Virus genome (UHGV): UHGV-0140152
Length of the DNA: 19,401 bases
Strand: one strand, 5' to 3'
DNA from: a virus
Positions 700-13,292 of the stretch are shown here, piece by piece; position 1 is the stretch's first letter, and each line of letters opens with the position of its first letter. Below the pieces are notes generated by a model. It ran no database searches and had not been told where the DNA came from. It saw nothing but the letters and a program-made list of their open reading frames with translations. The translations under genes and the position numbers were made by a program.

Positions 700-1560
700 T
701 ATCAATAAGTTATAGTTGTTTATACAAACCAGAAAACAACTGAATAACAGATCAATGAAACCTCAACACTTTCACCCGATTTGGTCTAAAAAATTGACGT
801 TTTCACACATCACTTCTTATACCCGCAATTCTACGCAGCAGACAGCGCCACAGCGTCCAATTTTCACCACAGACGACTCAACACACTACCAACAAAAACA
901 CACGCTCAAAATCGCTCCCGTTGCGTTACACAACCATATAAACAACTTATTTTCAGGAATAACAAAACAACTAAATAACACATGCGCCATTCCCAAAAAC
1001 AACCAACCTCTTTATGGCAGGCTACCGAAAAGACCCACCTCTTCTTCCCAGGCTACCGGACAACCAACCTAACTTTCACAGGCAATACGAAAACATTCAT
1101 GCGCGCGATACCCACGACACGCCATTCCCCAAACAGCGAAGAAACACCAGAATCACTGAAACCCCAACGAAGCCTGTTACCGCAAGGATTCTCTCAATCC
1201 CAAAAGACACGAAACATAACAATCACGGGAAACGCCATTACCCAATACACGAATAACCACAAAAGCCTTTCACACACTCCAGACAAACAACTCAAACACA
1301 ATAACGAAAGGAATCGCCCACCTGCCATTACTCCATACACGGAGAAAAACAATCACCAAAACGACGAGAACACCCCATAGAAGAACCACCGCAAAACGAA
1401 CGAAACCATTTACACCGACAGAGAGAACAACACACCCAATTCACCAACAGAATTAGTCGCCGTATAGAACGTTCTGGAAGGAGTGAGCATTAACGTCCAT
1501 AGAGAGGTTGAGACAGATAAAACACGAAGAAAACACAACATGTATAGCGAAGAAGCCAGG
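700..1560 (+). other. about 850-bp non-coding tract, A+C-rich and G-poor on the plus strand
   Basis: Strong strand compositional skew. The only ORFs are overlapping low-complexity P/T/N/Q-rich frames with no RBS. Contains degenerate roughly 30-bp repeats starting caggctaccg (about 1017-1083). Confidence 0.6.
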
Positions 1561-1580
1561 TATGTATAAGTGGGGAGGGA

Positions 1581-1606
1581 AGGAGGGGTGTCGCCTCCTT
1601 TTTCGT
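1581..1606 (+). terminator. putative intrinsic terminator ending the AC-rich tract
   Basis: AGGAGG ggtgtcg CCTCCT hairpin followed by TTTTT. Confidence 0.5.
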
Positions 1607-3582: not shown

Positions 3583-3661
3583 TACCCGATAATAATTTGT
3601 TTTCTACCTTATCTGATTTGTGAAAATGATTTCACTGAAGCAACTTAATAAGGAAAAAATC

Positions 3662-4656: not shown

Positions 4657-4908
4657 ATGAGCTATCAAATTCTGACGACGACAGCAGCCAGCATTACTGA
4701 GCTGAAAAGAAACCCTATGGGCACTGTAGCTGAAGGTGAGGGGGAGGCCGTCGCAATCCTGAACCGGAATGAACCCGCGTTTTACTGTGTCCCACCAGAA
4801 CTTTATGCCTACTATCGGGAACTCGCCGAGGACGCTGAACTTAACGCGATTGCAGATGAAAGAATGAAAGAACCGGACATTGTGAAGGTTAACCTGAATG
4901 ACCTATGA
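4657..4908 (+). CDS. stbD: type II antitoxin, Phd/YefM (StbD-like) family
   Basis: 83-aa protein MSYQILTTTAASITELKRNP... resembling StbD/Phd antitoxins; GAGGAGG RBS; overlaps the downstream RelE-like toxin gene. Confidence 0.8.
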   Translation: MSYQILTTTAASITELKRNPMGTVAEGEGEAVAILNRNEPAFYCVPPELYAYYRELAEDAELNAIADERMKEPDIVKVNLNDL

Positions 4909-5179
4909 GCTGGCATTTGAACGCAGGGCACTGAAAGAATGGCAGAAGCTCGGCCACACTGTTCGTGAACAATTCAAAAAGAAGCTGTCAGAGCGCCTGA
5001 AAAATCCACATGTCCCCGCAGCCAGGCTATATGGTCATACTGACCGTTACAAAATTAAGCTTCGCGCATCCGGTTACAGGCTCGTTTATCAGGTAATTGA
5101 TGAGAAGGTTGTTTTGCTTGTCATTGCTGTAGGAAAAAGGGAAAGCAGCGAAGTCTATCACACGGCTGATACTCGTTAG
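4898..5179 (+). CDS. stbE: type II toxin, RelE/StbE family mRNA interferase
   Basis: 93-aa protein with ...RALKEWQKLG..., ...YKIKLRASGYRLVYQVIDEKVV..., ...VGKRESSEVY..., closely matching E. coli RelE as I recall it. Classic coupled antitoxin-toxin arrangement. Confidence 0.85.
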   Translation: MTYELAFERRALKEWQKLGHTVREQFKKKLSERLKNPHVPAARLYGHTDRYKIKLRASGYRLVYQVIDEKVVLLVIAVGKRESSEVYHTADTR

Positions 5180-5204: not shown

Positions 5205-5440
5205 GTTGACTAAATCTCATAATAACCTGAGGTCAATTTCTTCTGTTTGTGACCTCAGGTTAATTTCCTTTATTTATAACCTTAACTTATTAGGCTGCAT
5301 TTTATTCCGCGTCATCGCTTCATTATTTATGTATATGGCGACCTTATTTAATTACGCCCACCTGAACTTACTTCTTTTCCGCCTGTTTCATTCAGCGATA
5401 ATTAACGCATCGAAACGAAACTAAACGAAAGGAGTTAAAA
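5205..5440 (+). promoter_or_regulatory. cassette leader 1 (homologous to 6200-6342)
   Basis: 12-bp inverted repeats aacctgaggtca / tgacctcaggtt, conserved block cctgaacttacttcttttccgcctgtttcattcagcgat and a conserved RBS context. Confidence 0.55.
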
Positions 5441-6160
5441 ATGAGTGCGCGTCTTAAGAAGCTTATCAAAAAGCGTAAATCTCTTAAAGAACATGCAGAA
5501 TTGATAAATTTAATTGAAAAACGTTTTCCAGTCATTTCGGATATTGAGGACTTCTATTGGGTGGAGAAATGTAAAGTTTGGGATGGCATTGATGATGTAA
5601 AAGATGTGGATGATTTTGTCAGCAAGTACAACCCAGACATTAACTACAAACTAGCTGATGATTTTGCTGGCTCGTCTAAAGATGATCCGCTTCCTGATTG
5701 GTTTAACATTGATGATTATCCTAGTTGCATGTGTACCACCTACACCAACAAAGATTTTAGTAAAGCGTGGTTTGCTATTGCTTATGGCTGTTATTTCAAT
5801 AAGTCCGACGGAAGCAAAAGACCATATTTTCTCGCTGAAATAGACTTAACCAGCGGAGAGATTACAGTACACGAAAACCACAGGAATCTAATGAAGCTTG
5901 TTGATAGCGTTCGCGTACTGGATACAGACGCCCAGCAATTAACGAACAATGCATGGTTCGGACTTGATGGAGTAAAAGGGGGTATCGAACTGATAATGGG
6001 TCATCTTTTAAATGAATACTCGGACTGGTATCATCCGCCACACAATCCGCTTGAGTCATTTGACGATCCGCTTGAGCCATTTGACGATCCGCTGAAGGAC
6101 TACATCGATGAACCAATATATATGATGGAATCTTTTCAATTAGATATGATTCCAGCATGA
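5441..6160 (+). CDS. highly acidic hypothetical protein (239 aa); distant paralog of 8856..9503
   Basis: Track ORF; AAGGAG RBS. Shares ...DFSKAWF...FLAEIDLTSGEITV... and NPLESFDD with the minus-strand protein at 8856..9503. Confidence 0.75.
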   Translation: MSARLKKLIKKRKSLKEHAELINLIEKRFPVISDIEDFYWVEKCKVWDGIDDVKDVDDFVSKYNPDINYKLADDFAGSSKDDPLPDWFNIDDYPSCMCTTYTNKDFSKAWFAIAYGCYFNKSDGSKRPYFLAEIDLTSGEITVHENHRNLMKLVDSVRVLDTDAQQLTNNAWFGLDGVKGGIELIMGHLLNEYSDWYHPPHNPLESFDDPLEPFDDPLKDYIDEPIYMMESFQLDMIPA

Positions 6161-6165
6161 CAAAC

Positions 6166-6197
6166 GCCACCAGTTAACGCTGGTGGCTTCAAGTTTT
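6166..6197 (+). terminator. intrinsic terminator
   Basis: GCCACCAG ttaacg CTGGTGGC followed by TTCAAGTTTT. Confidence 0.65.
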
Positions 6198-6199
6198 GC

Positions 6200-6342
6200 T
6201 CTCATCACCTCAGGTCAAATTTCCTCGTTTGCAACCTCAGGTCAATTTAAGAATGATATCACCTGTATCCCTGAACTTACTTCTTTTCTGCCTGTTTCAT
6301 TCAGCGATGATTATTACATCGAAAACAAACGAGGAATTAAAA
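6200..6342 (+). promoter_or_regulatory. cassette leader 2 (homologous to 5205-5440)
   Basis: Two acctcaggtcaa repeats, conserved block cctgaacttacttcttttctgcctgtttcattcagcgat and GAGGA RBS. Confidence 0.55.
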
Positions 6343-7269
6343 ATGAAACCAGTATTTTTGGGGCGAATTGATATTAGTGAATTGTTTTCAGTTAGAGATG
6401 GGTTCCAATATGACTGTGATTGCCTTGAACTTAATGGTCTTGAACGTGAATACAGATTGGCTATTGTGAATGATGGTAAGAAGACATTTTCTGTCGAATG
6501 TTTTGAAAATACTTACTTTAAGCAGGTGTTGAGAATAAGACAGCATGTGGAGATGTCAATTCGGGAAAACATCAAAAATAAATGTGAGTTTCTTGTGGTT
6601 AAAAATGAAGCAGATGAAATAAACTTTGTTACGTTCACTGATAGTGGTCGATTGGCTATGCTGGAGCTATTTCAGCTGATCGTTTCTAATAACAGTATAA
6701 CAGAAGCCTTGAACAGTCTTTCAACTATAGTATCAAGAGAAAGAGAAAACACTGGCGCTTTAATTGTAGAGGAGCTAGATGGAATACTCGAGAAGATCAA
6801 GAATAAAGAGCTGATTATAGAATATGGCAAGGAAAGTAGGAAAAATAATTTACATTCAGCTTTTCACTCCCCATATGTTGAGCGTTTGAATGGTTTGGCT
6901 GCTTTTGTTAATTTGGACTTTAATAGATTTTTTAGTTCTTTTTTTACAGAGTGTGGGCTTGTTATTGTTGAGGTAAATAATGAGAACGATGTCCCCAAAA
7001 TTATAGTACATTCGATGCCTGATATATCTCTCAATGAAATTGGGGACAAACTGGAGAATTTATACGATGTAAAAAGCATGGAAGAACTCATAGAGTATCT
7101 GGCCATAAATGCGGTAGCCATGGCTGATAATGATGTGTTTGGGGTTGGTGCACTGCATGAAGGTTTTCTTGACGCCCTTGAGCTTTACGGGACTGCTCGC
7201 TGGTTTCTGTCAGGATTAGTGGATGATGCACCTTTACTCATCAATACAGATTATTTTTATTCCAGTTGA
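6343..7269 (+). CDS. hypothetical protein (308 aa)
   Basis: In-frame ATG within track ORF 6196..7269, placed after the conserved leader and GAGGA RBS. No family recognised. Confidence 0.7.
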   Translation: MKPVFLGRIDISELFSVRDGFQYDCDCLELNGLEREYRLAIVNDGKKTFSVECFENTYFKQVLRIRQHVEMSIRENIKNKCEFLVVKNEADEINFVTFTDSGRLAMLELFQLIVSNNSITEALNSLSTIVSRERENTGALIVEELDGILEKIKNKELIIEYGKESRKNNLHSAFHSPYVERLNGLAAFVNLDFNRFFSSFFTECGLVIVEVNNENDVPKIIVHSMPDISLNEIGDKLENLYDVKSMEELIEYLAINAVAMADNDVFGVGALHEGFLDALELYGTARWFLSGLVDDAPLLINTDYFYSS

Positions 7270-7275
7270 AAACAA

Positions 7276-7300
7276 GGCCACCACTGCTGGTGGCCTTAAA
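7276..7300 (+). terminator. putative terminator hairpin
   Basis: GGCCACCA ctgc TGGTGGCC hairpin; the T-tract is weak. Confidence 0.45.
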
Positions 7301-7472
7301 TGACCATCCTGTCTCCCGCAGGCTAAAAACACCAACCTCTTACCTCCAGGCAACCGACAAACCCACCTGTTCCCGTCCGGCTACCGCAACTTTCCACTTT
7401 GACGCCTTATTCGTACAACCATAATTAACACCAACAAGAGAACAATTTGTTATTTAGAATAAGGAATCAATC

Positions 7473-7955
7473 ATGAATTTTATCGCTACTGTAAACGCAC
7501 CCGCACATGGCAATATCGCTGTAACGTTCTCTGACACTGAAAAACGAGTACTTGGTGCATGGCGCGACAATGAGACGGTAGAACTGTCAGCACAAGAAAA
7601 ATGCATTATTGCACGCGACATCATTGGCAATCGTCGTTACTCGCGGGTATTTGAGAAAGCGTATGTGGTAAATTCTGGGTTCGGAACGTTCGTCTTTCCG
7701 GTGCGCTCCGGGCGATTCTGCCAGTCCAAGCTGATTGAGTTCGCTACGCAGATTTCTGTCTGGATTAAAACTCAATCGTCGTTCAAATTTTCCGACGATG
7801 AAGCAGTATCGCAGGGGATGCGGATCGCCAACAATGCAATTAAATGCAAAAACATTACGTATACCGCTGGCGTTGACACATGGAGACTGTTTTGCGCTAA
7901 CTTTATGCTGAATGTATACGCAAGCAACCGCATCCACATCCTTGATGGCGTGTAA
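7473..7955 (+). CDS. hypothetical protein (160 aa)
   Basis: Track ORF; AAGGAA RBS; leader shares taacaccaacaagagaacaatttgtt with the 2166 gene. Confidence 0.7.
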   Translation: MNFIATVNAPAHGNIAVTFSDTEKRVLGAWRDNETVELSAQEKCIIARDIIGNRRYSRVFEKAYVVNSGFGTFVFPVRSGRFCQSKLIEFATQISVWIKTQSSFKFSDDEAVSQGMRIANNAIKCKNITYTAGVDTWRLFCANFMLNVYASNRIHILDGV

Positions 7956-7970
7956 CTGAGAAGAGGGCCA

Positions 7971-8085
7971 GAAACGGCCCTTTCTCTATAGCCACCAGCT
8001 GCCGCAGGGAAATTTTCAGAAACGGCTAGGAACGCATTCATGAGCCGACGGGAAACGGCCAGGATTTTTTCGGGAAACGGCTACA
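7971..8085. repeat. iteron-like array, 4 copies of GAAACGGC
   Basis: GAAACGGC at about 7973, 8021, 8054 and 8076; the same core as the 1691-1802 array. The first copy sits in the loop of a GGGCC...GGCCC hairpin. Confidence 0.55.
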
Positions 8086-8207
8086 TTTGCCTTTATGTAG
8101 AAAAAACATCGGGAAGCTGGTGGAATCCAATCAGCGGTTGTCGGACAGGTGAGCGGGGAAAATCATTATGACTCTCGTCACCTGAGACATCCAGATTTCT
8201 TTCATAG

Positions 8208-8260
8208 CGTAATCACATACGTGATTAAGTGGTGTGATTATGTGAAAAATCACGCGCACA
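8208..8260. repeat. cluster of GTGATT/AATCAC inverted repeats
   Basis: TAATCAC-atac-GTGATTA and GTGATT-atgtgaaa-AATCAC within 50 bp, in a convergent intergenic region. Confidence 0.5.
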
Positions 8261-8429
8261 TAATACGCGAGCGGATACGGAACAAAACAAAATGCAGATT
8301 CGCGCCGACAAATAAACGCGGATCATAAAGCAAGACTAAAAGCCAATGATTAACTATGCGCTATAGCGCAATATAACGCATTTTAAGCGCGTTAATGTGT
8401 TAAGTAATGGGTATGTACTGGCAAGGATA

Positions 8430-8570
8430 TAAAAGCGCGTCCATGGCGTTATTTTGGCGCTTATTTTTATGTTGTTGGAGTGAGTTAAAGACAATAAAAA
8501 AGCGCCATCATTGGCGCGTTATGGTGGGAGTATTGGAAACGAAAAAAGCGCCCATAGTGGGCGCTCGATT
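8430..8570. repeat. tandem GC-stem hairpins of the GCGCC(C)A-N-TGGGCGC family
   Basis: gcgccatcattggcgc and gcgcccatagtgggcgc, each flanked by A/T runs; plausibly bidirectional terminators. Confidence 0.5.
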
Positions 8571-10549: not shown

Positions 10550-11113
10550 TTAAAATGGAAGGATTCGGTCAACCCAATCGAAGAGAACAATCATTCTTGC
10601 ATGTTCCCTGATTTTCATCGTCACCTGACAAGCATCAACGCCTAACGACACTCCCTCTATTTCACGGCCATCCGCCATGTAGACCCTTATAGATCTGCCG
10701 TTTTGATGAGCTTTGCGACATATCTTAAAAAAGTCACGACGTGATGGCTGGTTGTTCACGTAGTCAGGATGTACGGTAAGCCTGTCCGCAAAGTCCCCAT
10801 CTACTTCTGGAGGTATAATCGTTTCTATAGAGCTAACTTTCCCAAGAGGAAGACGAACTCGACGCTCTTTGCTTCTTGGAACGGGTGATAGATCAAGTTT
10901 GTTGCGTGATGGTAGTGTTCCCTGTACATACATGTTGAATACCTGTCCATCTTCCATCGTGACTTTTACAGGAACAGAGTGTGCCCTCCAGAACATCAAG
11001 GTATGTTCCACATTAGAATAGTCTCGCGGCCATACTTCAGCCGGTATGCCGTATGTAATATCTTTCGTCGTCATATCATTATAAAGTGGTTGGCAATATG
11101 TCCATTGTACCAT
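10550..11113 (-). CDS. hypothetical protein (187 aa; possibly 174 aa from an internal ATG at about 11074)
   Basis: Track ORF. The 11113 start overlaps the lipoprotein gene by 35 nt; the alternative ATG lies a few nt after the lipoprotein stop. No clear RBS for either. Confidence 0.55.
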   Translation of the reverse strand: MVQWTYCQPLYNDMTTKDITYGIPAEVWPRDYSNVEHTLMFWRAHSVPVKVTMEDGQVFNMYVQGTLPSRNKLDLSPVPRSKERRVRLPLGKVSSIETIIPPEVDGDFADRLTVHPDYVNNQPSRRDFFKICRKAHQNGRSIRVYMADGREIEGVSLGVDACQVTMKIREHARMIVLFDWVDRILPF

Positions 11114-12311: not shown

Positions 12312-13292
12312 TTAATTGGTGTTTTTGTTCTTCTCTTTTTTGCTAATTTCATCACATGTAAGGTTCATTATGTCTATGTTTTCTTGCTTTTGAAGGTTGC
12401 CGACAATTTTTTTGCGCAATTCATAAAATCGCTCGCGTGGTATAGCTTCCTTGTTGCCGTTGATGTGAAGTATTGCGTGACAGCTAGGGCAGACGGCAAT
12501 CAGATCTGTTTTTGGGTTCACGCTTCGTGCATCTTCGCCTTGTGAAAGTGGGACGATGTGGTGAGCGTGTAGCAGCGTTTTCGTTTCTTTGCCGTCAATT
12601 TCCTTGCCGTATATTTCCGACATCGTTCTGCAACATAATTGACACCTGTAGTCTGCGTTTGCCAGAACGTCATTCCTTAACCCGGATACGCGGCTACGAT
12701 GTTGCGACTGGATTAATCTTGTTTCGCCCTCTATATATTCCTCAACTTCTTCTTTCTGGAGGTCGTAGCTGATTTCTTCTTGAGTCGGATGGACTTTTTT
12801 GTATAGAAGATCAAGATATTTAATGTCCTCTGTTATATATTTGGAATCCTCTAGCGAGGATATTTTTCCTGAGTCTATGTAGTCAATTAATGTAATAAGG
12901 AACATCTCTATCGATAGCCTGTTTTTAAAGGCAAACGAATATCCAAGATGTCTTCTATCTCCTGAATGAATTGGCGTCCAATGAGATTTCTCAATTTTTT
13001 GTGGTGTTACGCAGATACCTTTGCCGATATTGTTTACATGTTCCAATAATTGATAAACAGAATTAATGCGGTAAGCATGTGTTACTAAAGAATTTATTTT
13101 TCTTGTGCCGACGGAGGATTTTGTCATAACAACATGATGAGATATTTGTTTTTTTAAAATCAAATCATACGATGTAGCTTTTTGGTTTTCGCCTTTGTCG
13201 GTTTTTTTTATTAAATTTAGTTTTTTATTAGAGGCTATTTTCTCTATTTCTTCTCTAACTTCTTTTATCGTCATGTAAGTTTCTTTTGTCAT
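12312..13292 (-). CDS. HNH endonuclease, McrA-like C-terminal domain with an unrecognised N-terminal domain (326 aa)
   Basis: C-terminus YRCQLCC...LLHAHHIVPLSQGEDARSVNPKTDLIAVCPSCHAILH is an HNH motif with two Cys pairs, arranged like McrA. AT-rich gene. Confidence 0.8.
   Translation of the reverse strand: MTKETYMTIKEVREEIEKIASNKKLNLIKKTDKGENQKATSYDLILKKQISHHVVMTKSSVGTRKINSLVTHAYRINSVYQLLEHVNNIGKGICVTPQKIEKSHWTPIHSGDRRHLGYSFAFKNRLSIEMFLITLIDYIDSGKISSLEDSKYITEDIKYLDLLYKKVHPTQEEISYDLQKEEVEEYIEGETRLIQSQHRSRVSGLRNDVLANADYRCQLCCRTMSEIYGKEIDGKETKTLLHAHHIVPLSQGEDARSVNPKTDLIAVCPSCHAILHINGNKEAIPRERFYELRKKIVGNLQKQENIDIMNLTCDEISKKEKNKNTN

Follow-up and report, generated by a model that had tools for sequence, protein, structure and literature searches.

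Why should a phage genome maintain about one and a half kilobases of DNA that hold no credible gene and are, in large part, depleted of G on one strand? This question is raised by the virus genome UHGV-0140152, of which we analysed a stretch of 19,401 nucleotides (the window; positions are counted from its first letter, and + is the strand as given). An interval of 1.58 kb without a credible gene (588-2165) separates a DUF5983 open reading frame (ORF; 279-587) from the first small early gene (2166-2342). Within this interval lies an A+C-rich, G- and T-poor tract (613-1466, + strand) with a C/G ratio of ~2 or more throughout, which is a predicted zone of Rho loading and termination. Based on the anatomy, composition and conservation of the element, the absence of coding potential and of RNA structure, and a drop of RNA in a close relative, we suggest that it is best explained as a family-specific non-coding boundary element between variable cargo genes and conserved, repressor-controlled early genes, both of which are co-directional. 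We tentatively regard it, with a confidence that falls a little short of even, as a Rho-dependent terminator or insulator that is possibly regulated in lytic growth.

The sequence belongs to an SSU5-type phage-plasmid and not to a chromosome. Positions 600-1700 matched 243 of 5426 complete Escherichia coli genomes at 93-97% identity, and all 249 match places lay on plasmids of ~107-116 kb, with none on a chromosome; the sequence-only reading had compared the region with enterobacterial intergenic regions, a frame that does not apply here. The locus of the tract is 93-96% identical to the phage-plasmids Cyrano, CMS-2020a and PhiR41_1, ~72% identical to Klebsiella phage-plasmids and 69% identical to Salmonella phage SSU5. 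In PLSDB, the tract is carried by 835 plasmids, nearly all of them non-mobilizable, from six or more genera, among them Klebsiella (427), Escherichia (224), Enterobacter (90), Salmonella (49, including pHCM2 of S. Typhi), Citrobacter and Cronobacter; pMT1-type Yersinia plasmids were not among these 835 matches. Clinical Klebsiella, E. coli, Salmonella and Enterobacter often harbour SSU5-type phage-plasmids, which carry resistance and other cargo genes. No relatives outside the SSU5 group were found among phages at E<=10, and a scan of species genomes beyond this group returned only Kluyvera plus three probable contaminants. The conserved left block was matched exactly in L075 (Halomonas sulfidaeris AP019514.1), L076 (a Bacillota metagenome-assembled genome) and L078 (a Catenulispora contig of 604 bp), which are probably enterobacterial phage-plasmid contamination. 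The region is undescribed in the phage-plasmid papers that we searched.

When we calculated base frequencies, positions 700-1606 consisted of 38.7% A, 28.6% C, 15.2% G and 17.5% T, and the core at 830-1450 of 40.1% A, 33.2% C, 12.6% G and 14.2% T, compared with 28.6, 21.1, 21.8 and 28.4% in the whole window. In 200-nt windows over 701-1400, the GC skew ranged from -0.43 to -0.55 and the AT skew from +0.25 to +0.65, at a GC content of the region of 42-50%, and YC dinucleotides numbered 13.8 per 100 nt in the tract versus ~10 in the window. In a 109.5-kb relative, the tract is the most extreme 600-nt window of the replicon for (A+C)-(G+T), at +0.47 against a mean of 0.006 (standard deviation 0.059) and a runner-up of 0.197. 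The strand skew and G depletion described from the sequence alone were thus borne out, and the extent of the region, given there as about 850 bp at 700-1606, had to be redrawn: the gene-free gap is wider (588-2165), and the skewed part stops near 1466. Positions 1470-1606 are purine-rich and not G-poor, G-rich sequence lies beyond, the signs of both skews flip near 1470, and the GC skew swings from ~-0.45 to ~+0.2-0.3 within 200 bp around the hairpin that ends the tract. The same type of composition recurs downstream of a promoter-like motif (see below) in each of ~70 related loci. In alignments, the variable columns are 59-72% A+C, and exchange between A and C is the most frequent substitution in 5 of 6 lineage pairs. 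The other + strand intergenic spacers of the same gene array are likewise richer in C than in G.

Rho is known to require ~80 nt of untranslated, unstructured RNA containing more C than G. The combination of C>G and little structure, for which at least 70-80 nt would be enough, extends over the whole of 613-1466. Coding potential was assessed using Pfam, six-frame tblastn, ORF maps, codon-phase entropy and three-frame ratios of nonsynonymous to synonymous polymorphism (pN/pS), with flanking genes as controls. Relatives contain 1.4-1.8 kb of unannotated sequence at this place, or ORF calls that are mutually inconsistent in strand and position, and ORF maps of 7-10 lineages contained no ORF with a conserved frame or start codon. 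The ORFs at 716-1072 and 982-1380 had no Pfam match, and neither their position nor their frame is conserved. The variation over the three codon phases was flat in the tract (0.571/0.543/0.577 bits) and clearly periodic in the flanking gene that served as positive control (0.635/0.483/1.048 bits). These results agree with the earlier remark that no credible ORF is present, and the RNA of the tract is accordingly taken as untranslated.

The tract is also not a structured RNA. Rfam gave no match in the window at gathering thresholds, which settles a check proposed by the sequence-only reading, and at E<=5 only a chance-level match on the opposite strand (1627-1675); a search for tRNA and tmRNA found nothing. 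The minimum free energy of the 621-nt core was -69.7 kcal/mol, or -0.11 kcal/mol per nt. When ten lineages were folded together using RNAalifold, the consensus energy for the 879 columns was -29 kcal/mol, to which covariation contributed slightly unfavourably, and the conserved structure comprised just two terminal hairpins and an operator palindrome.

The first of these hairpins is a two-tier stem-loop without a U-tract (617-663, + strand), in which an outer arm TGGCGGTCA (617-625) pairs with TGATCGCCA (655-663) and the inner arms (632-638 and 645-651) enclose the loop TTCTAT. It folds in all ten lineages at -13 to -20 kcal/mol. The sequence of the outer 9-bp stem is invariant in 10/10 lineages, with 8 of 9 pairs folded in Kp L004; the inner arms form a hairpin in eight of the ten, with differing arm sequences and an identical loop, and fold otherwise in Kp L004 and L008. 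This conserved stem-loop is the junction between cargo and backbone. It starts 1-30 nt past the stop codon of the co-directional upstream gene; in KpJN2, whose upstream gene points the other way, only a degenerate form is present. The tract itself always lies directly behind a variable cargo gene, co-directionally in six of the seven lineages examined and divergently in KpJN2; the element marks the exact border between the variable cargo and the phage early genes. At the other end, a conserved TATAAG and a polypurine tract GTGGGGAGGGAAGGAGGGG lead into the second hairpin (1577-1603) and T-rich sequence (whole feature 1565-1603, + strand). In the window, this hairpin has a 10-bp stem and a T-run, and a consensus scan also classed it as terminator-like, in agreement with the terminator hairpin that the first inspection had placed at the end of the region; every lineage retains the hairpin itself, by way of changes from G:C to G:U. 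We also considered pairing of the polypurine tract with the 31-nt repeats described below as a terminator/antiterminator switch and rejected it, since it was no better than shuffles (z -1.8 to +0.6).

Comparison of the lineages, ~10 of which can be aligned end to end across the element, indicates that the tract is under strong selection. Compared with the other lineages, the window is 58-67% identical at the nucleotide level over the tract and 48-63% over the flanking genes, the synonymous sites of which are near saturation. Within the E. coli lineage, positions 780-1980 form one unit of low nucleotide diversity (1-3%) between recombination-prone edges (580-780 and 1980-2180) of 7-13% diversity. 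In one relative, L062, recombination has joined a left part like that of the E. coli lineage to a right part like that of the L042 lineage.

RNA data were available for Cyrano, whose locus is 96% identical to that of the window, from a reanalysis of LF82 RNA sequencing (RNA-seq) with supplementary tables of log2(FPKM+5) values, where FPKM denotes fragments per kilobase per million mapped fragments (PMC9928086). The cargo gene CYRAN_102, which ends 1 nt before the stem-loop block, reaches up to ~590 FPKM, while CYRAN_103 (window 716-1072) stays at 0-14 FPKM in all ten samples and CYRAN_104 (~1562-1966) at 1-20 FPKM; the following gene, CYRAN_105, is driven by a promoter of its own and climbs to ~220 FPKM (PMC9928086). 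The signal thus drops by more than 100-fold from CYRAN_102 to CYRAN_103, and no hairpin followed by a U-tract, as in an intrinsic terminator, is present between them. In this relative, transcription or RNA is therefore lost over the initial 100-450 nt of the element, with no intrinsic terminator to account for it.

A stop codon, a stem-loop without a U-tract, a long, untranslated and unstructured C>G tract and a back-up hairpin are textbook anatomy of a Rho terminator. Similar untranslated, C-rich, G-poor and unstructured tracts past a stop codon are found in terminators of the Rho utilization (rut) type, such as lambda tR1 (rutA-boxB-rutB), P1/P7 immI and P4 timm, which likewise have a hairpin without a U-tract at the start and lose RNA without an intrinsic terminator, and with which temperate phages silence lytic genes. 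In lambda tR1, the rut sites lie around the boxB hairpin. The 3' ends of Rho-terminated transcripts are reportedly trimmed to a protective stem-loop, as Dar and Sorek are said to have described in 2018. We suggest that RNA polymerase arriving from upstream would exit the last cargo ORF, leaving the following RNA without ribosome cover. The exposed RNA, which is C-rich, G-poor and near structure-free for ~850 nt, would be a preferred substrate of Rho, and Rho loading and transcript release would occur early in the tract. The stem-loop at 617-663 would shield the 3' end of the upstream mRNA, the hairpin at 1577-1603 would act as a back-up intrinsic stop, and overall the lytic early genes would be insulated from transcription in the lysogen. 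Some upstream cargo genes are expressed in the lysogen, and the insulator function is suggested because the site lies between cargo that includes such genes and co-directional early genes. Since operator-like and promoter-like sites lie inside the element, the block may be regulated in lytic growth, in the manner of lambda nutR-tR1. In this scheme we infer the involvement of Rho, the protection of the 3' end and any regulation. If it is true, an insulator that leaves the cargo on in lysogeny and the lytic programme untriggered would explain the acceptance of arbitrary cargo, and it would be a compact, portable and very strong terminator module.

The element contains, in addition, an ordered set of motifs. 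Operator-like sequences are present at 729-972, namely half-sites AGAAAACAA at 731-739 and ~963-972 and a palindrome AAACAAnTTGTTT at 940-952, which is invariant within the element in all lineages. The same 13-bp palindrome recurs in the window at 211, 262, 2136, 2687, 3590, 7440, 13087, 14325, 19287 and 19312, and the 109.5-kb relative has 17 sites with at most one mismatch, mostly at promoters and with two just upstream of the small terminase gene, compared with ~0.2-1 sites expected by chance in a rough estimate from base frequencies without a shuffle control. The set looks like the operators of a genome-wide repressor, comparable to C1 of P1; a predicted phrog_1444 'transcriptional repressor' gene lies at 10550-11113 (- strand). 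A promoter-like site (794-822, + strand) consists of TTGACG (794-799), a 17-nt spacer and TTATAC (817-822) with an upstream A-tract. Its hexamers are invariant and its spacer is variable in ten lineages, its -10 hexamer has no canonical final T and was therefore missed by the consensus scan, and an exact pattern search with this motif retrieved 61 viral contigs.

Further along, three tandem units of ~31 bp (996-1090, + strand), of the form CAGGCTACCG-N5-ACCnACCTCTT-N5, give the base A a period of ~31 and an autocorrelation peak at 31; they agree with the degenerate ~30-bp repeats of the sequence-only reading. The relative L014 (IMG/VR 2606217110_000013) has four such units rather than three. 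Four copies of GCCATT(A/C)C... begin at 986, 1121, 1234 and 1324 (986-1350, + strand; full form in relatives GCCATTACCCAATACACGGAGAAGAAC), against 0.15 GCCATT expected. The element carries four or five of these motifs in a single orientation, and GCCATT[AC]C occurs in the window only inside the element, with five more elsewhere in the full plasmid. Their spacing is 142/135/93 bp, within 2 bp, in seven lineages that are 60-70% identical, and 135/113/90 bp in the E. coli lineage; apart from these copies there is no super-repeat of 135-142 bp. The skewed tract ends with a block AGTCGCCGTATAGAACG (1455-1471, + strand) that is almost invariant in ten lineages. Past the hairpin, the same conserved unit continues as G-rich sequence (1660-1810, + strand) with ~6 direct GGRAAMGGCTGG units at a spacing of 21-31 nt, which are iteron-like and conserved in all lineages; this part has no consistent codon periodicity and folds no better than shuffles.

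Here, we need to consider several points that weigh against a Rho-type terminator as the full explanation. First, a rut tract requires neither 850 nt nor sequence conservation at the level of genes, and neither a motif spacing held within 2 bp nor ordered direct repeats. Second, a conserved promoter-like site at 794-822 is odd inside an insulator. Third, we identified no antiterminator protein among the neighbouring genes. Fourth, no lineage but that of E. coli has a good U-tract behind the hairpin at 1577-1603; in SSU5, Salmonella and some other lineages, the hairpin is followed by GTAGAAATTC, a poor U-tract. Finally, the more than 100-fold drop in Cyrano comes from gene-level counts, of unstated strandedness, in a relative of the window, in which termination and rapid decay are indistinguishable. 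The element also differs from a typical rut site in being ~10 times longer, in the conservation of its sequence, direct repeats and spacing across genera, in the promoter-like and operator-like sites inside it, and in having no match to the boxA consensus CGCTCTT(T)A. The features of a lambda-type nut site were likewise not found: the nearest boxA-like sequence, CGCTCAAAA at 904-912, is accompanied by a 3-bp stem, the stem-loop at 617-663 is not boxB-like, and no N-like arginine-rich protein is evident among the neighbours. Length, primary sequence, spacing, repeats, promoter-like site and G-rich continuation are thus not explained by the Rho model, and they point to an additional or different function. 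For the left part at least, the Rho loading region of the sequence-only reading therefore has the best support of the functions considered, since this part is untranslated, C>G, structure-poor and headed by a stem-loop, and the RNA in Cyrano drops across its junction with the upstream gene, but a plain rut tract leaves the repeats and architecture unexplained. We class what is new here as an extended, sequence-conserved form of a Rho-type terminator region. Whatever the function, the element is a testable bacterial non-coding sequence of ~1 kb that is under strong purifying selection and has neither a coding nor an RNA-structure signal.

It is conceivable, though we are doubtful, that the element represents a new kind of phage cis-element, in which ~1.2 kb (780-1980) of conserved, structure-free sequence with fixed geometry would be read in single-stranded form, as RNA or DNA, by a phage-encoded complex. 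One possibility would be a transcription-primed lytic origin, in which the polypurine tract at 1573-1590 would form the primer hybrid; another would be a platform for processive antitermination or a DNA-entry checkpoint, with a role like that of lambda nut or the T5 injection-stop region.

As the main rival to the Rho reading, the element could act in cis at the level of DNA, as a nucleoprotein site that serves as lytic origin or for some other assembly; we consider this unlikely. Phage proteins would assemble on the ordered direct repeats (31-bp, GCCATT and G-rich 22-bp units), and repressor-controlled internal transcription would activate the site, as in P1 oriL or lambda ori. The single orientation and fixed spacing of the repeats among lineages of only 60-70% identity, the conserved G-rich units, the change of skew sign near 1470, the operators flanking the promoter-like site and the scant RNA from the region are all consistent with it. 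The 31-bp units also recur upstream of another promoter in every lineage. In the window, this second, short C>G tract (7310-7400, + strand), which the first inspection had noticed as similar in character, contains two of the units (7325-7390) in a region with a GC skew of -0.31 to -0.41 (7201-7500), and is flanked by a hairpin (7276-7297) on one side and, on the other, by the promoter, with TTGACG at 7401, of a phrog_1641 gene (7473-7955). The arrangement, with 2-4 units of 31 bp, is also present in SSU5 and Klebsiella relatives, and provides a second iteron-like cluster 6 kb away, comparable to P4 ori/crr. In several natural plasmids, IS3-family and IS1 insertion sequences (IS) interrupt the non-coding interval (L009 3152-4263, L011 3443-4656 and match H8), and in some large Klebsiella plasmids only the first ~330 nt of the element is left, adjoining IS elements. 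This tolerance in the plasmid state, together with the absence of pMT1-type Yersinia plasmids among the carriers, would fit a function in the phage cycle over one in plasmid maintenance.

Several observations do not agree with such a site. DnaA boxes and an AT-rich unwinding element are absent, as is any GATC between 754 and 2489; the conservation has no 10-11-bp periodicity, as the 10.5-bp helical repeat would give; and the extremum of the cumulative skew of the whole plasmid is at RepB. Protein binding also fails to explain why 700 bp, including the variable positions, are G-poor on one strand. The adjacent initiator candidate, the phrog_1641 protein, was rejected: its homologues are confined to this phage group, and its AlphaFold2 model (pLDDT 90.9) has no Rep-like fold, with no sequence or fold match in the PDB. 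When we compared the element with iteron origins, for which tandem direct repeats of 17-22 bp at helical spacing are characteristic, we observed three 31-bp units and six GGRAAMGGCTGG units 21-31 nt apart. The tandem direct repeats with a spacing of two to three turns and the second cluster kilobases away are shared with P4 ori/crr and P1 incC/incA, and nearby repressor-controlled transcription with P1 oriL and lambda ori. Unlike these iteron and lytic origins, the element has no adjacent initiator gene, unwinding element or DnaA boxes, and the tract far exceeds known unwinding elements in length.

The nearest anatomical analogue in another phage is the injection-stop region (iss) of T5, an untranslated region of 1.2-1.7 kb with ordered repeats that is conserved better than the neighbouring ORFs (bioRxiv 10.1101/866236). 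Both are parts of large siphovirus genomes, sit ~10% of the linear map away from an end, and share the untranslated state, the ordered repeats and the conservation above that of neighbours; the Cyrano record begins at terS, which places the element 13-14 kb from its right end. They differ in that T5 iss contains large inverted repeats, palindromes and paired DnaA boxes within a terminal repeat, while the present element has direct repeats and extreme strand skew, with no DnaA boxes and only short inverted repeats found. To our knowledge, neither terminal repeats nor two-step injection have been described for SSU5-like phages. If the element were an origin or a checkpoint site, it would be an essential and so far unmapped cis-element of a widespread phage group.

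The second tract was also considered as a type III toxin-antitoxin system. Such systems are laid out as tandem RNA repeats of 34-45 nt, a terminator and a gene for a ToxN/AbiQ-like endoribonuclease. The candidate was rejected, since the phrog_1641 gene behind the repeats has no PADLOC, Pfam or fold match and a promoter, not a terminator, lies between repeats and gene.

It seems improbable that the internal promoter yields, in early lytic growth, a long non-coding RNA that is A/C-rich, free of structure and active in trans. Such an RNA would titrate either a host factor that binds single-stranded RNA (Rho, Hfq or ribosomal S1) or a G/U-rich small RNA (GcvB, as with the prophage anti-small-RNA AgvB), for which the conserved promoter-like site with a hairpin ~780 nt downstream, a composition that minimises base pairing, repeated motifs as in multi-site sponge RNAs and many CA-rich words, including CACAACAT at 1533-1540, would be suitable. 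However, the long non-coding RNA considered by the sequence-only reading is disfavoured, as an abundant transcript, by the near-zero counts in Cyrano, where the region stays at 0-14 FPKM even when capsid and neighbouring early genes reach 120-220 FPKM, and no RNA matching the site at 794-822 is seen even with lytic genes partly on. The missing final T of the -10 hexamer is critical, fixed spacing is unnecessary for a sponge, and Rho would itself terminate such an RNA. A CsrA sponge of the CsrB type was rejected. By manual count, ~6 GGA occur in 621 nt versus ~4 expected, so that the motif is not enriched; in the E. coli lineage, two of the three copies of the repeat motif have lost their GGA, and no hairpins present GGA. 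The repeated single-stranded motifs do resemble those of CsrB/RsmZ, CrcZ and the anti-small-RNA AgvB, and the CA-rich words resemble GcvB targets; the element differs from these RNAs in having no hairpin-presented GGA, in being much longer and in being essentially not expressed in the available data.

A functionless remnant, in which decaying promoter and intergenic cassettes were concatenated after gene loss, is very improbable. Its motifs do look like pieces of the promoter cassettes that the small genes nearby carry (YGCC in the -35 region, AGAAAACAA boxes and 31-bp units), and IS elements do insert in the interval. Against this, the identity of the tract equals or exceeds that of the flanking genes, indels are strongly avoided with motif spacing fixed, and the composition is conserved; the wide carriage by plasmids of six or more genera and the low diversity in the E. 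coli lineage also speak against decay. The suggestion of a decayed element in the sequence-only reading is therefore not supported.

The least probable of all is that the tract encodes a low-complexity protein (K/N/T/Q/P/E-rich) or short peptides overlooked by annotation pipelines: long open frames such as 982-1380 (132 aa) exist, some phage records annotate ORFs here, 3 of 5 between-lineage indels are multiples of three and one 129-nt segment has a pN/pS of 0.51 in one frame (1.58 and 0.89 in the others), resembling genuine neighbouring genes, but open frames are expected by chance in G-poor DNA without TAG and TGA, the frame of this segment has no ATG, GTG or TTG in 8 of 10 lineages and is broken by stops or frameshifts in L008, L042, L053, L062, L006 and the E. 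coli lineage, the extra 31-nt unit of L014 disrupts the 982 ORF, and the flat codon phase, the lack of Pfam matches and the discordant annotations described above apply to the tract as a whole. Coding potential was thus rejected, except for the weak pN/pS signal of the 129-nt segment, which is left unexplained.

The surroundings of the element were examined on the map of a full plasmid that is 97% identical, whose genome is almost unidirectional. RepB is followed by nucleotide-metabolism genes, accessory or cargo genes (HumD, apbC, metG, DUF5983) and the non-coding interval; then come ~7 small genes with a shared promoter cassette, a short opposite-strand block (repressor, helicase), ParB-like genes, terminase and structural genes, and replication genes, leading back to RepB, which lies ~30 kb from the tract. 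The window starts within the cargo, with the 3' end of metG at 1-124. In the relative L001, the cargo includes full-length metG (methionyl-tRNA synthetase) and apbC (5236-8527), and the same position is occupied by different genes in other lineages, for example a GIY-YIG nuclease and SSU5_107. According to PHROGs, the neighbouring genes belong to families without assigned function, apart from a RelE/antitoxin pair and the repressor. The pair, an antitoxin (phrog_2268) and a RelE-like toxin (phrog_1213), is at 4657-5179 within the small-gene array. Two ORFs at 5441-7269 (239 aa and ~308-357 aa) have no Pfam, PHROG or PADLOC match, and L001, the closest plasmid, lacks them; their position between copies of the promoter cassette suggests recent acquisition as cargo. 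In the opposite-strand block, a 326-aa ORF (12312-13292, - strand) is HNH endonuclease-like in its C-terminal half.

Terminator hairpins at 7276-7297, 2576-2598 and 6166-6187 are built on GGCCACCA...TGGTGGCC, and the first of them contains a Chi octamer GCTGGTGG (7286-7293, + strand). Promoter-leader cassettes precede the small + strand genes at 205-277, 2079-2151, 2646-2702, 3584-3627, 5361-5421, 6270-6330 and 7384-7444. Their layout, TTTTCnGCCT, N13-15, GATAAT, AACACCAnCAAGAAAACAAnnTGTTT and a Shine-Dalgarno sequence, is nearly identical at each small gene. Over ~40 nt, the cassette does not vary between lineages whose identity is otherwise 60-70%. The cassettes could also promote their own shuffling through recombination.

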